From NCBI GenBank assembly GCA_016185945.1, contig JACPMR010000015.1, positions 217,543 through 281,542 of the forward strand: a stretch of 64,000 nt of DNA, read 5' to 3'. Position 1 is the stretch's first letter; each line of letters starts with the position of its first letter. Below the pieces are notes generated by a model. The model had not been told where the DNA came from and did not search any database. It saw nothing but the letters and a program-made list of their open reading frames with translations. Below, piece after piece: positions 4,935-41,221 of the stretch. The DNA is from Candidatus Woesearchaeota archaeon. GTDB lineage: Archaea; Nanobdellota; Nanobdellia; Woesearchaeales; GW2011-AR4. Both the position numbers and the translations under genes were made by a program.

Positions 4935-6005
4935 TTATCTCGTCACCTCAAACCCTTTTATCGTCTCGTGCAGTTTCTTCAGTTTTTCATCTTTATTGAA
5001 TGCTTCCCTAACTGGATTTACCATTTCATTTATGTAGTAAGCAACTGCATTTTTCAAATCAGCAGGGTGAATTTTTCCTTCCCTGTAGAGTTTTTCAAGC
5101 TCAGCATAATTTTCTATCACTAAATCTCCTCCAAATTTTTCAGCTCTTTTAATTTCGATTGTATTGAATTTCTCAAAGACAAGGTATTTGGAATACTCAA
5201 GCATGGGATTCTCTTCAACAATCTTTGCCGGGCAAGGTGCTTTGCCAATTTTCCTGCTTATCTCCTCTTCTGAGTCGTTCATGAAAATAGCCCTGTCAGG
5301 ATTGGTTTTTGACATTTTCAATTTCAAAATCCTGTCTTCATCATGCTCTTTTGGCGGCTCTCCTAAGCCAACAAGCATATGGTGGCTTATAACTACTGGC
5401 TTCCAGAAGCCTAAGCTATGACCAAGCTCCCTTGCAAGAACATTAACTTTTCTCTGGTCCATGCCGAGCTGTGTGATGTCTGCTTTGAGATGAAAAATAT
5501 CAGCGCATTGCATGCAGGGATATAAAATTTGAGAAGCCTGCTGCATTTCTCCTTCTTTTCTGCCCATTATCTGTCCTGTTCTTATGATTCTTTGCACTGT
5601 TGAATGCCTTGCAACCTGCATTACCTTTTTCCAGTATTCTGGCTCCTTGACAAAATCGTTAGCCCACAGAAAATCTATATTTTTTAAGTCCATTCCGCAT
5701 TTGCGCCAGACTTCTATCAAGTATTTCCCCACTGTCTGTATTTTCTCCAAGTCGCCGCCCATCTTGTTGTTAGCCCATGCATGCCAGTCAGCAACGAGCA
5801 TCTTGAACTTGATTCCTGCCTTTATCATTTTGTTGATATTAATTGTTCTTAGAATTCCCTGTGCAATATGAATGTCGCCGCTTGGCTCGAACCCGTCATA
5901 AGCAATTGGGTGCTCTTTTGTTTTCAATAAATTGACTAGCTCTTCTTCTGTCAGAATTTCCTCTCCAACCTGCTTTATCAGCTCTAGCTTAGTTTCTATA
6001 TCCAT
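4935..6005 (-). CDS. tyrS: Tyrosine-tRNA ligase (archaeal type)
   Basis: YDGFEPSGDIHIAQG (HIGH-like), YPCMQCAD, GMDQRK, KMSKT (KMSKS-like). Confidence 0.97.
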   Translation of the reverse strand: MDIETKLELIKQVGEEILTEEELVNLLKTKEHPIAYDGFEPSGDIHIAQGILRTININKMIKAGIKFKMLVADWHAWANNKMGGDLEKIQTVGKYLIEVWRKCGMDLKNIDFLWANDFVKEPEYWKKVMQVARHSTVQRIIRTGQIMGRKEGEMQQASQILYPCMQCADIFHLKADITQLGMDQRKVNVLARELGHSLGFWKPVVISHHMLVGLGEPPKEHDEDRILKLKMSKTNPDRAIFMNDSEEEISRKIGKAPCPAKIVEENPMLEYSKYLVFEKFNTIEIKRAEKFGGDLVIENYAELEKLYREGKIHPADLKNAVAYYINEMVNPVREAFNKDEKLKKLHETIKGFEVTR

Positions 6006-6125
6006 AAAACAAGAAATTATGATGTTAATATTTAAAGTTTGTGAGAAAACAAATTCAATTTTAATTTTTTATTTCAATCAGTGACTTTCCAACAAAAACA
6101 GAGATTAAATCCTTTTAATTCAATC

Positions 6126-6257
6126 ACGTGGGCTTCCCTGTAGCTGCTTTTGTGATGAGGGAGCCACAGCCTCTTCTGCTTGCACTTGATTGTTGGCGAT
6201 AAAGTGCATCTGTAGTATGCGGGGCACCCATTTTAGTTAGTTGTGCTAATGGGTCGC
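6126..6257 (+). repeat. Three-hairpin structured intergenic element (copy A)
   Basis: Stems gcttccct/agggagc, tgcactt/aagtgca and acccatt/aatgggt. 6181-6257 aligns almost colinearly with 29563-29636. Confidence 0.7.
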
Positions 6258-6290
6258 TAGTTTTTTTGAATTATTTTATAATTAAATTGT

Positions 6291-6554
6291 TTAGGGTTTA
6301 TTCTCTTGCACTTTCTTTAAAACCATTTGGCTGGCTGCACCGACAGAAATGCCCAATATTTCCAAAGCAAAGAAAACAATCATGCTAAATGGCAAATTGC
6401 TTACATAAGTGGCAAATCCAGTAGTGCTTGAGACAGCATTTCCTGTAGGGATTATTGTGGCTGGGGCTCCATTGTCGCCATAGATAGGGAGCATGAAATA
6501 GACAAGTAAAGCAACTAGTGCTCCTATATAGGCGCCTTCTTTCATAATCTTCAT
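6291..6554 (-). CDS. Small membrane protein with two TM segments and a TGNAV motif
   Basis: Two hydrophobic segments flank IPTGNAV; TGx(A/V)V motifs are common in DPANN surface proteins. Confidence 0.55.
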   Translation of the reverse strand: MKIMKEGAYIGALVALLVYFMLPIYGDNGAPATIIPTGNAVSSTTGFATYVSNLPFSMIVFFALEILGISVGAASQMVLKKVQENKP

Positions 6555-21945: not shown

Positions 21946-22018
21946 AAATAATTAATTCAATAAATAAAAACCACATTAAGATAATAAAACATTAACAAAA
22001 AATAAATCAAACAAAAAC

Positions 22019-22263
22019 GAGAGCGACTTTTAGCTTCCATAGGCTAAGAAAGTAATCCGCTTTTGATTGAATTTGTGCATGCATAGGCGAGGCTTGAGCG
22101 ATTGGCAGAGAAGAGTGTGACATGCGAGTGAGCTCGACCTGCTTGCGTCCGACTTGTGAGCGAGTGATTCGCTCACTCGCATGTCACTGCTCGCAAGCTC
22201 GCATTCAACAGCGAACTCGCTCACAAGTCACCCGAGCTGTAAATATTGTTGCCGAAGGCAACA
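22019..22263. repeat. Composite structured insertion between the transketolase halves (copy B)
   Basis: 22019-22064 matches 29511-29556 at 36 of 46 nt. Perfect inverted repeats at 22117-33/22171-87 (17 bp) and 22151-65/22215-29 (15 bp); tgttgcc-gaa-ggcaaca hairpin at 22247-63. Confidence 0.75.
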
Positions 22264-22296
22264 GATTGAAGATAGAAATAATTAAATCAACTAAAA

Positions 22297-28349: not shown

Positions 28350-28400
28350 TAAACATTTTAAAACTCTAGAATGTTACAAACAATATCCAAAGGTGAGAAC

Positions 28401-29414
28401 ATGATTGTGGTGATGAAGAAGGGCGCAGGCGAAAAACAGCTTGCCAAGGTAATTGAAAAAATAAAGGAAAATGGGTTGAAGGCACATATCTCGAAAGGAG
28501 ATTTTGTGACAGTAATAGGGATTTTAGGAGATGAAAGCAAAGTTCCTGAAGCGCAGATAAGGGCATTGGAGGGAGTAGAAAAGCTGATGCCTGTTTTGTC
28601 TCCTTACAAGCTTGTAAGCAAGGATTTTCATCCTGAAAAGACTGTTGTGACTGTTGATGGTGTTAAAATAGGAGGCAATGAAGCTGTTGTGATGGCAGGG
28701 CCTTGCACTGTTGAAAGCAAAGAGCAGATACTTGAGACAGCAAGGGCTGTGAAGAAAGCAGGAGCAAGAATACTAAGAGGAGGCGCTTTCAAGCCAAGAA
28801 CATCTCCTTATTCTTTCCAAGGACTGGGGGAGGAAGGTTTAAAGCTGTTAAAACTTGCAAAAGAAGAAACCGGACTGCCAATCATAACAGAGGTTATGGA
28901 CACTAGAAATGTCCCATTAGTTTGCAAGTATGCTGATATTTTGCAGGTTGGAGCGAGAAACATGCAAAACTTTGATTTGCTGAAGGAAGTTGGCAAATGC
29001 AGTCATCCTGTTCTGCTGAAAAGAGGAATTTCAGCAACAATTACGGAATGGTTTATGAGCGCAGAATACATAATGGCAGAAGGCAATCATAACATCATCT
29101 TATGTGAAAGAGGGATAAGAACTTTTGAGACATACACAAGAAATACTCTTGACTTGAATGCTGTGCCTGCTGTCAAGGAATTGACACATCTACCGATTAT
29201 TGTAGATCCGAGTCATGGTACTGGGAGATACAGCTTAGTCAGCCCAATGAGCAAGGCGGCAATTGCAGCAGGCGCAGATGGATTATTAATTGAGGTTCAT
29301 CCAAGCCCTGAAAAATCAGTGAGCGACGCAGACCAGACAATAAGCACGAAAAGGTTTGAGAAATTGATGGAAGAATTAAAGTTAATAGCGCATGCAATAG
29401 GAAGGAAAATATAA
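28401..29414 (+). CDS. aroF: DAHP synthase type I-beta with N-terminal regulatory domain
   Basis: [51 protein letters not shown]; SD aggtga precedes ATG 28401. Confidence 0.95.
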
Positions 29415-29510
29415 GAAAATTGATTAGGTTGAAGACGATTAACAAATTCAATCAACAAACACGAGAGCTTCCTTTAAATAAAAGCAATATTGTAAAAATT
29501 AATCAATCCA

Positions 29511-29636
29511 GAGAGCGACTTTTGGAAGTCAAAGGAGAAGAAAGTGAACCGCTTTTACATAATGCACTTAAAGTCAAACAATATAGTGCAACAGCAATTG
29601 CGGGGCGCCCATTTTAACTAGCAGTGCTTGGGTCGC
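29511..29636 (+). repeat. Three-hairpin structured element (copy C) between aroF and aroB
   Basis: The 5' part matches 22019-22064 and the 3' part matches 6181-6257. Confidence 0.7.
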
Positions 29637-29671
29637 CTGATTGTTTTAAAAAATAGTATATTATATCAGAA

Positions 29672-30751
29672 ATGGAAACTATTAGAGTAAATTTGAAAGA
29701 AGAGATTGACAATTCTTATGTCATTTTAATAGATGAGGGGTTATTTGATAATCTGGCAAATGAGTTAAAACAAAAGCCGCTTGGAAATTATTATGCAATA
29801 ATAACTGACACTAATGTTGGGAAAGTTTACGGTAAAAAGTTGTTGGAAAATTTGCAAAGCAAAAATATCAATGCACATTTGATAACATCCCAAGCAGGAG
29901 AAAAAGGCAAAACAAGAAAGACAAAGGAAAAAATCGAGGATGAGATGCTTGAGCTCGGCTTGGGCAGAGACTCCTGCATCATTGCTCTTGGCGGCGGTGT
30001 TGTTGGCGACTTGGCGGGGTTTGTTGCTGCAACATACATGAGGGGAATTCCATACATTCAAGTTCCCACAAGCTTGCTTGCAATGGGTGACAGTTCAATA
30101 GGTGGCAAAGTTGCAGTAGATACACTGCATGCAAAGAATGTGATTGGCGCTTTCTACCAGCCGAAAAAAGTGATTATTGACTTGAATTTTCTGAGAACAT
30201 TACCAAAAAGCGAATTGGCGAATGGAATGGCTGAAGTAATCAAGCACGCTCTAATTAAAGACAAGGATTTCTTCCATTTTCTAGAAAAAAACATTGACAA
30301 GATTATGGATTTGGAGATATTAAAAAAAACAATTAAAAGGAGCTGCGAGATTAAGGCGGATATTATAATGCAAGATGAAAAGGAAAAAGGGCTTAGGAGA
30401 ATTCTCAATTATGGGCATACAATCGGGCATGCAATCGAAGCAGCATTGAGCTACAAAATAAGCCATGGAAATGCAATTGCGATTGGCATGAGCTATGCTG
30501 CAAAATTATCCGCAAAGAAGGGCTTTCTGCATGAAGGTTCTGTTATAAGGCAGAATAATCTGATGGAGTATATTGGCTTGCCGCACAGATTAAGCCATCA
30601 TAAATTGAAACCAAGAAAAATTCTGGGAAATATACAATATGACAAGAAAATCGTGGATGGAAAGATAAATTTTGTATTGTTGAATTCAATTGGAGATGCC
30701 TTTGTTTCTGATGAAATAACTTTGGACGATATTAAGCAAATATTGGAATAA
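29672..30751 (+). CDS. aroB: 3-dehydroquinate synthase
   Basis: ALGGGVVGDLAGF, RGIPYIQVPTSL, DSSIGGK, EVIKH, LNYGHTIGHAIE. Confidence 0.96.
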   Translation: METIRVNLKEEIDNSYVILIDEGLFDNLANELKQKPLGNYYAIITDTNVGKVYGKKLLENLQSKNINAHLITSQAGEKGKTRKTKEKIEDEMLELGLGRDSCIIALGGGVVGDLAGFVAATYMRGIPYIQVPTSLLAMGDSSIGGKVAVDTLHAKNVIGAFYQPKKVIIDLNFLRTLPKSELANGMAEVIKHALIKDKDFFHFLEKNIDKIMDLEILKKTIKRSCEIKADIIMQDEKEKGLRRILNYGHTIGHAIEAALSYKISHGNAIAIGMSYAAKLSAKKGFLHEGSVIRQNNLMEYIGLPHRLSHHKLKPRKILGNIQYDKKIVDGKINFVLLNSIGDAFVSDEITLDDIKQILE

Positions 30752-40939: not shown

Positions 40940-41092
40940 CCGTCTGCGACGCACTATAGTGCGCGTCGGCATTCTGCTGTAGAGGTAGCATTCCTTTGTG
41001 CTCCTCCTCCGCACCAATTTATTTACCACTGCTCGGCAAACTTTCCTGAGCTGGGTTCCCATATGATGCTTACAGATTCTGGGAAGCGACGT
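40940..41092 (-). ncRNA. Candidate structured RNA or repeat (copy D) between rpl34e and rpl14e
   Basis: GC-rich island in an AT-rich spacer with several hairpins and the perfect palindrome cgcactatagtgcg (40950-63). Its first hairpin resembles copy A. No family recognised. Confidence 0.45.
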
Positions 41093-41221
41093 TGTTTGAA
41101 AATTTTAATTATATTTTAAAATTTAATGTTTTAGTTAAAGTTACTTTAGTTAATGTTTTTGTGCTTCTTGCCTTTTAAATTAGGGCAATTTCAATGAAAT
41201 AATTATTTTTTCAAAAACGAA

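Follow-up and report, generated by a model that had tools for sequence, protein, structure and literature searches.

Bacterial interspersed mosaic elements (BIMEs) of enterobacteria are built of REP hairpins, and the BOX elements of Streptococcus pneumoniae are modular boxA-boxB-boxC repeats. Here we describe a repeat family from a small groundwater Woesearchaeota (DPANN) archaeon (assembly of 1.5 Mb, 36.8% G+C) that most resembles, in architecture and genomic behaviour, BIME/REP mosaics and MITEs, and that fails the defining tests of each. As in BIME/REP elements, its units are short, imperfect, bulged hairpins whose subtypes are joined in alternating or inverted orientation with linker modules; they occur in hundreds of copies, lie after stop codons and between the genes of operons, and may affect transcript ends. 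BIME/REP elements are strictly extragenic, and 113 of 120 loci are intergenic here. The differences lie in the archaeal host, in the lack of a GTAG-type 5′ tetranucleotide, in the inverted TTCAATCNCG boxes that serve as bounds, and in the RAYT/Y1 transposase, which this genome lacks and whose occurrence across the genus bears no relation to copy number. With MITEs such as the Correia elements of Neisseria the family shares a length of ~150 nt, a non-coding and intergenic nature, terminal inverted repeats, high copy number, a patchy occurrence among related genomes with polymorphism at orthologous sites, and ends that may be promoter- or terminator-like. Unlike MITEs, it showed no detectable target-site duplication and no related autonomous IS in the genome, its arms are exchangeable modules of five subfamilies, and many of its copies are single arms.

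Three further systems offer narrower parallels. BOX elements have a modular grammar with optional, repeated middle modules, form hairpins, are intergenic and have no known transposase, but they are unrelated in sequence, reside in a bacterial host and lack a pair of inverted arms flanking a palindrome in the middle. Integron attC sites are imperfect palindromes of variable sequence with a conserved fold and extrahelical bases, and they lie just 3′ of ORFs and co-oriented with them; the boxes ATTCAAT/ATTGAAT found here resemble attC RYYYAAC/GTTRRRY except at one base. That base leaves RYYYAAC/GTTRRRY unmatched, however, the core site's key G/C has not been kept, no integron integrase was found in 26 genus genomes, and the sites here are spread among housekeeping genes without cassette arrays; since there is no IntI, attC identity was rejected. 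Palindrome-associated elements (PATEs), derived from IS200/IS605, likewise place bulged hairpins subterminally at a fixed distance from the element end, and single-strand recognition is a plausible mechanism, whereas the Y1 transposase is absent here and does not follow copy number in the genus, and our elements, unlike IS200/IS605 ends, do carry terminal inverted repeats. A census of prokaryotic MITEs placed a Woesearchaea genome among the MITE-richest archaea, at 105 per Mb, with the elements not described (PMC11602168). Our literature search found no paper joining Woesearchaeota and intergenic hairpin repeats.

Two copies of a modular repeat family

The window analysed here is a 64,000-nt stretch of this genome whose gene content is archaeal (RFC small subunit, Drg-type GTPase, class I TyrRS). 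Two of its spacers hold copies of the element, A (6119-6271) and C (29499-29648), which have a central palindrome and a 3′ hairpin in common (Table 1). A sequence-only reading of the window had aligned 6181-6257 with 29563-29636, with stems and spacing kept and loops diverged, and this was confirmed by reading the sequence, by pattern searches and by pairwise alignment of hairpins 2 and 3. The stems of hairpin 3 differ at a single position, an A to G change that turns an A:T pair into G:T. The pattern TGCACTT-N(10-16)-ANAGTGCA had two matches in the 64-kb window (6181-6208 and 29563-29590, both N13) and none in shuffles, and GCGGGGCRCCCATTTTA occurred at exactly two sites, 6219 and 29600 (0.14 expected). 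The upstream, 5′ hairpins (6130-6165 and 29510-29556), which had been said to share a bulged-stem architecture, proved homologous: a covariance model (R1) assigned both to the same module family (6116-6175, +, 55.7 bits, E 5.6e-13; 29499-29558, +, 60.5 bits, E 2.8e-14). In both copies arm 1 is followed by the H palindrome and an inverted G arm; arm 1 is of type K in copy A and of type T in copy C, where a truncated U arm precedes it. The G arm of copy A can be aligned with other module types. The gene setting was also as first described. Copy A lies between orf87, a conserved 87-aa ORF, and tyrS, upstream of tyrS and antisense to it; copy C lies between the DAHP synthase gene and aroB, in sense before aroB.

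Table 1. Repeat features and neighbouring genes in the window
Feature	Position	Strand	Basis
tyrS	4935-6005	-	
Inserted block at the tyrS site (copy A and repeat remnants)	6046-6290		Spacer comparison, same-genus genomes
Limits of the tyrS-site block: orf87 stop codon; tyrS promoter CTTTAAATA	6291-6293; about 6030-6045	-	
Remnants left of copy A: K-arm extension attaaatccttttaa... and truncated module start tttcaatcagtgactttcc (~6071-6091)	6047-6118		
Copy A, left terminal box TTCAATCACG	6119-6128	+	Identical box, as inverted repeat, flanks at least 18 composites
Copy A, arm 1, subfamily K: hairpin GGGCTTCCCT..AGGGAGCC, then ACAGCC	6130-6171	+	R1 match 6116-6175
Copy A, central palindrome H, TGCACTT-N13-AAAGTGCA	6181-6208		Pattern search
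Copy A, arm 2, subfamily G: hairpin GCGGGGCACCCA..TGGGTCGC and degenerate right box gctagtttttttgaa	6213-6273	-	R1, E 1.3e-6
orf87	6291-6554	-	
Other family member: solo T module, then L module to ~22270	22007-22066	+	R1, E 1e-13
DAHP synthase gene	28371-29414	+	
257-nt inserted block, DAHP synthase stop codon (29412-29414) to aroB ATG (29672)	29415-29671		
Truncated extra arm, subfamily U: TTCAATCAACAAACACGAGAGCTTCCTTTAAAT	29447-29479	+	Weak R1 match 29451-29478; nhmmer module match C9:246998-247020
Copy C, arm 1, subfamily T: box TCAATCCAG, hairpin AGAGCGACTTT..AAAGTGAACCGCTT	29499-29558	+	R1, 60.5 bits
Copy C, central palindrome H, TGCACTT-N13-ATAGTGCA	29563-29590		Pattern search
Copy C, arm 2, subfamily G: GCGGGGCGCCCA..TGGGTCGC and box CCTGATTG	29594-29648	-	R1, E 2.2e-4
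T/A-rich TATA-box-like sequence TTTTAAAAAATAG, centre ~27 nt before aroB ATG	29644-29656	+	Not in relatives' empty sites
aroB	29672-30751	+	
Other family member: W-type module, then L module (~40950-41040, -)	41044-41103	-	R1, E 8.8e-10

Five hairpin subfamilies, K, G, T, U and W, align together as variants of one module. An arm spans ~60 nt and runs, from the outside, through a box (TTCAATCNCG), a lower stem of 3-4 bp, an upper stem of 5 bp, a loop of ~20 nt that terminates in GTGAT(G/A)A, the returning upper stem, a bulge of 4-5 nt on this one strand, and the returning lower stem. K arms, of which the genome has about 22, are followed by a conserved T5-6 run, and ahead of most of them stands an extension, GGCTTCC-TAAAAAACAATGATTAAATCTTTTTAT, that is also present in the remnants left of copy A. 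Across 76 distinct copies the upper helix was 99.7% paired, and double changes were found at four of its five pairs (UA46/AU30, CG53/UA21, UA47/CG29, UA57/AU17). The covariation score was 0.471 against 0.196 +/- 0.014 in shuffles (0 of 500 as high) and at most 0.255 in slid-partner controls; loci from the T-type pattern scan of other MAGs were kept out of this set, since that pattern fixes both stem arms. The upper stem is maintained by compensatory changes, and because the covarying changes divide the subfamilies, they represent few independent events. Wobble pairs were near-absent and without strand asymmetry, at counts too low to be decisive (6 GT and 4 AC in ~730 upper-stem cells). Their scarcity would fit a hairpin formed on both DNA strands better than a one-strand RNA, and the counts lend no support to RNA on either strand.

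Copies A and C are two of about 25 composites in the genome. Each composite joins two arms of unlike subfamilies, inverted around a GCACT..AGTGC palindrome, so that the whole is bounded by inverted boxes, TTCAATCNCG and CGNGATTGAA. These terminal inverted repeats flank 18 composites, and the right box of copy A and the boxes of copy C are degenerate. From box to box, the 18 composites with clear boxes measured 143-151 nt, ~148 nt being typical. T or U arms were paired with K, G or W, and G arms with K; no type was ever paired with itself. In 25 composites the central GCACT..AGTGC stem was nearly invariant and did not covary, its 13-17-nt loop was free in sequence, and the linkers beside it were often complementary to one another. 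The earlier proposal of selection for structure thus holds for the hairpin stem, with its compensatory changes, and does not extend to the invariant central palindrome.

Solo arms accounted for 98 modules, many of them trailed by a different module, L (ATAGGCGAGGC..UGGCAG..GCCGAGCA..mini-hairpin..CGGATTGAA), a unit that is bounded by TTCAATC and GATTGAA boxes too and whose end fell 24-56 nt ahead of the next start codon in 20 of 35 cases. There are 54 L modules in the genome, including those at 22084-22270 (+) and 40950-41040 (-) of the window. Their fold comprises a helix with tandem G.A pairs (GGCGAGGC/GCCGAGCA) and a UGGCAG-type loop, and the mini-hairpin has a variable, compensating stem followed by CGGATTGAA. 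Nested within L modules, K arms and G arms was a GC-rich hairpin repeat with a long perfect stem, AGTGACATGCGAGTGAGC...GCTCACTCGCATGTCACT (window 22117-22229; C9:20464-20542, C3:300848-300921, C3:122558-122728, C5:21532-21723), which is a second repeat family targeting the first.

Searching the genome with copies A and C by blastn returned dozens of partial matches at 82-100% identity, most of them at 85-95%. An nhmmer profile gave 169 matches, which merged into 120 loci covering 15.3 kb, or ~1% of the genome, and the intergenic share of these loci was judged against the calls of a simple codon-usage gene caller (1556 genes, 87% coding). The loci occupied tandem, convergent and divergent spacers roughly as often as each spacer type occurs, and the genes beside the other ~120 were unrelated ones. 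Modules numbered 153 by nhmmer and 132 by R1. R1 detected the family in 18 of 24 further genomes from this GTDB genus, with 1-39 modules in each (0-39 over the genus, against 132 here, the highest number), and 16 genomes from other families of the order held none. The dispersed repeat family supposed from the window's letters is thereby borne out, both within the genome and among its relatives.

Among the matches listed, the exact T-type pattern was found in more than 25 further MAGs, mostly of groundwater Woesearchaeota/Nanoarchaeota. Exact T-type modules were also seen, among the matches listed, in some TPA MAGs named 'uncultured Methanosarcinales' or 'Gammaproteobacteria' (L100, L103, L106, L114 and others), which are probably mislabelled or contaminated bins holding Woesearchaeota contigs. 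IMG/VR viral contigs gave no exact match to the T-type or K-type pattern, and a viral origin of the repeats was rejected on that ground. In the present assembly, the small contigs C10, C12, C16, C19 and C23 are 70-82% identical duplicates of parts of the large contigs C5, C1 and C3, which points to a second, related population mixed into the bin. Such duplicates (C16 against C3) were dropped as an empty-site comparison because the site carries an extra gene and is uninformative.

The aro and tyrS spacers in related genomes

In most of 11 same-genus genomes, ~0-9 nt separate the DAHP synthase stop codon from the aroB ATG (e.g. ...aaaatatGAaaaATGgaa), the exceptions being one spacer of ~33 nt and one with an extra 600-nt ORF; here the junction measures 257 nt and consists wholly of repeat material. 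The 600-nt ORF lies in relative L012 (G011:C16), and since it stands where this genome has the repeat, the aroF-aroB junction seems to be a recurrent insertion point. At the other site, the order cas4-like gene, orf87, tyrS is kept across 19-20 same-genus genomes. A promoter box, AAAC(C)TTTAAATA, is conserved ~33 nt before the tyrS ATG in 19 same-genus genomes (loci L033-L053; 6030-6045, -, in the window), a position that implies a tyrS mRNA with little or no leader. In three same-genus genomes the spacer between orf87 and tyrS measures 35-42 nt, the stop codon leading directly into the promoter. About seven genomes have an L module there (reversed and beside a T-like arm in one of them, L051), one has T+L and another T with an inverted G arm, and this genome has G-H-K plus remnants, in 285 nt. 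At this site the cassettes always lie upstream of the conserved tyrS promoter.

Since the relatives' sites are empty or hold other cassettes, copies A and C are lineage-specific secondary insertions. At the level of sequence, the comparison shows both to have been inserted into the spacer that runs from a stop codon to the start or promoter of the next gene, and it shows that elements are gained, lost and exchanged between species. One permissive slot has been filled repeatedly and differently, so that the aromatic amino-acid neighbourhood is coincidental; the sequence-only reading had allowed that this link may be chance, and the empty sites in relatives and the unrelated genes beside other copies agree with it.

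The sequence TTTTAAAAAATAG ahead of aroB is a candidate promoter element, TATA-box-like in sequence. Its GTTTT(T)AAAAAA string also trails the closest G arms, at C24:83770 and C4:57380; because TTTTAAAAAATAG is absent from empty sites and the same string follows other G arms, it arrived with the element. At both sites the inserted blocks reach 21-73 nt past the terminal boxes, in A/T-rich or remnant sequence, and therefore the mobile unit need not end at the boxes; the elements may also have spread through recombination or gene conversion.

Orientation to genes and the search for a mobilising enzyme

A module was taken to point inwards from its box. Where the flanking genes are in tandem, solo modules were co-directional with them in 62 cases and opposite in 11 (binomial p ~9e-10), and those without a downstream L module were divided 44 to 9. 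T modules in other MAGs, at 80 loci among the matches listed, were co-directional in 42 cases against 10 (p ~9e-6), and in 28 of those 42 the GAGAGCG core started 26-70 nt past the upstream stop codon. The orientation of composites to genes was not significantly biased (7 co-oriented, 4 anti). The bias may stem from selection against the reverse orientation, given directional promoter- or terminator-like ends, or from an RNA-level role in the upstream transcript; a purely selfish DNA model does not predict co-orientation, so that an RNA-level function could be at work. In composition the two flanks of a composite are inverted relative to each other, with A-rich sequence ahead of the left box and T-rich sequence beyond the right one, and their sequence is not conserved.

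Around 18 well-bounded composites, direct repeats of 2-8 nt at all offsets were no commoner than in re-paired flanks, and the comparison of empty and filled aroB sites gave no target-site duplication. Self-comparison of the genome, ~91% complete and thus with room for a single-copy enzyme, found at most two copies of any repeat above 400 bp, and hence no multi-copy IS. The family showed several MITE traits, being small, non-coding, multi-copy, polymorphic between relatives and bounded by terminal inverted repeats; a target-site duplication and a related autonomous IS with the same ends were not found. What remains of the MITE family first proposed is accordingly the repeat family, its inverted boxes and its insertion polymorphism, shorn of duplication and parent IS.

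The Y1 (IS200/RAYT-type) transposase, PF01797, had no match in this genome. It occurred in 14 of 26 genus genomes, being present in some with 0-2 modules and absent from several with 25-39, and a Y1/RAYT partner was rejected on account of its absence here and of a presence that does not follow module number in the genus. The integron integrase model TIGR02249 never scored above cut-off in the 26 genus genomes; its matches skip the IntI-specific segment and are therefore ordinary Xer-like recombinases. Three Xer-like tyrosine recombinase genes are present in the genome (C3:301356-302165, C8:467-1264, C11:41752-42498), the C3 gene standing ~370 nt from the repeat locus C3:300733-300985. No correlation between Xer-like recombinase genes and repeat number was seen in the genus.

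Mobile DNA, RNA-level and protein-site readings

We think it likely that A and C represent the composite form of a mobile, MITE/BIME-like repeat, a large non-coding family of modules that has spread through the intergenic DNA of one Woesearchaeota genus-level group. The elements would be non-autonomous mobile DNA, and the arm, a box with a bulged subterminal hairpin, is probably recognised in folded form, single-stranded or cruciform, by a trans-acting recombinase or transposase. Selection would retain only insertions in stop-to-promoter spacers that are oriented without disturbing neighbouring transcription, and each element, A-rich at its entry, T-rich at its exit and with hairpins between, could end transcripts by hairpin and U-tract. 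Insertion into the aro operon would have parted DAHP synthase from aroB and brought in a TATA-like box at the right distance from the aroB start. More tentatively, and with the odds against it, an undescribed archaeal system of mobilisation (non-Y1, non-integron, non-classical DDE IS) may act on the arms, and the cassettes may be portable transcript-end/promoter units that rewire DPANN operons; such units would explain both the co-orientation with genes and the fixed stop-to-promoter position.

The same co-orientation (62:11 for solo modules, 44:9 without an L module, 42:10 in other MAGs among the matches listed) also points to another reading, in which the repeats are or became functional RNA-level elements, with repeat spread secondary: 3′-UTR or intercistronic hairpins, co-transcribed with the adjoining genes, at which the upstream transcript ends or gains stability, or independent small RNAs driven from a promoter of their own in the A-rich flank ahead. 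The narrow placement after upstream stops (26-70 nt in 28 of 42, other MAGs, matches listed), a sense strand that runs from A-rich flank through hairpin to GCTTTTGATGTTTT, the conserved T5-6 run after K arms and the compensatory changes that preserve the hairpin are consistent with such a role. We nevertheless regard it as doubtful, since G:U pairs are near-absent without strand asymmetry, elements also lie in divergent spacers, where a terminator is needless, no Rfam family matched, and the orthologous spacer is empty in some species and differently occupied in others, a turnover by which no particular gene depends on the elements. Multiplicity could itself be functional if the modules were binding sites of a host DNA-binding protein (for chromosome organisation, a replication/repair factor or a global regulator) that recognises the GCACT..AGTGC palindrome and the TTCAATC boxes. 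The central palindrome and terminal boxes are conserved in sequence beyond mere pairing, composite length is highly uniform (143-151 nt) and no transposase was found, all of which suits protein sites; a copy number of 0 to 132 within one genus, turnover at orthologous sites, upper stems that covary rather than hold one sequence, and other repeats nested inside the elements make them improbable.

Least probable of all, by a wide measure, is a dedicated cis-regulatory RNA (riboswitch, T-box-like leader or attenuator) or sRNA tying tyrS and the aro operon to aromatic amino-acid supply. One copy adjoins tyrS and the other sits inside the aro operon, and conserved stems with diverged loops do look like structured RNA, but ~120 other loci bear the same modules beside unrelated genes, relatives that keep tyrS and the aro operon are missing the element at both sites, copy A runs antisense to tyrS and lies ahead of the conserved, leaderless tyrS promoter, and with the E threshold relaxed to 10 neither a T-box nor any other Rfam model matched above chance level. 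An RNA specific to aromatic amino-acid genes can in effect be dismissed. Across the whole window, Rfam 15 (T-box, riboswitches, C/D and H/ACA sRNAs included) gave no match to a curated model at gathering score, and the two regions gave only chance-level matches (E 2.9 or higher). With Rfam negative, there is no evidence for a dedicated or riboswitch-like RNA, and the structured ncRNA under selection that the sequence-only reading had offered beside a MITE family is unproven.

Individual RNA and recombination motifs were likewise tried and set aside. The 3′ hairpin is loosely T-box- or terminator-like, and a T-box, riboswitch or attenuator was rejected because Rfam was negative and relatives have empty sites. 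In the K arm there is a GUGAUGA and, after the stem, an ACA, as an H/ACA or C/D sRNA might have, but there is no pseudouridylation pocket, the 5′ strand is without the K-turn GA and the motif is inconsistent across subfamilies. A helix of 5 bp with a single 4-5-nt bulge is unlike the 3-4-3 geometry of a bulge-helix-bulge splice site, and a pseudoknot between box AUCAC and loop GUGAU was discarded since the box variants (CCCG or CACG) do not covary with the loop sequence.

The mobile repeat that we favour takes up ~1% of a very compact DPANN genome, with 132 modules in one species against 0-39 in its congeners, and it keeps a bulged hairpin by compensatory change and yet is without every usual mobilising enzyme tested. 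Its grammar is clear, with five interchangeable arm types, unlike arms always paired and uniform composites of ~148 nt, and its orientation bias is replicated in independent MAGs. For annotation, the family carries a warning that conserved gene-adjacent hairpins in Woesearchaeota are usually repeat modules, not gene-specific regulators. In these genomes, such insertions disrupt the close junctions between operon genes; if an undescribed mobilisation system is indeed behind them, a single cassette would have split aroF from aroB and supplied a TATA-like box.
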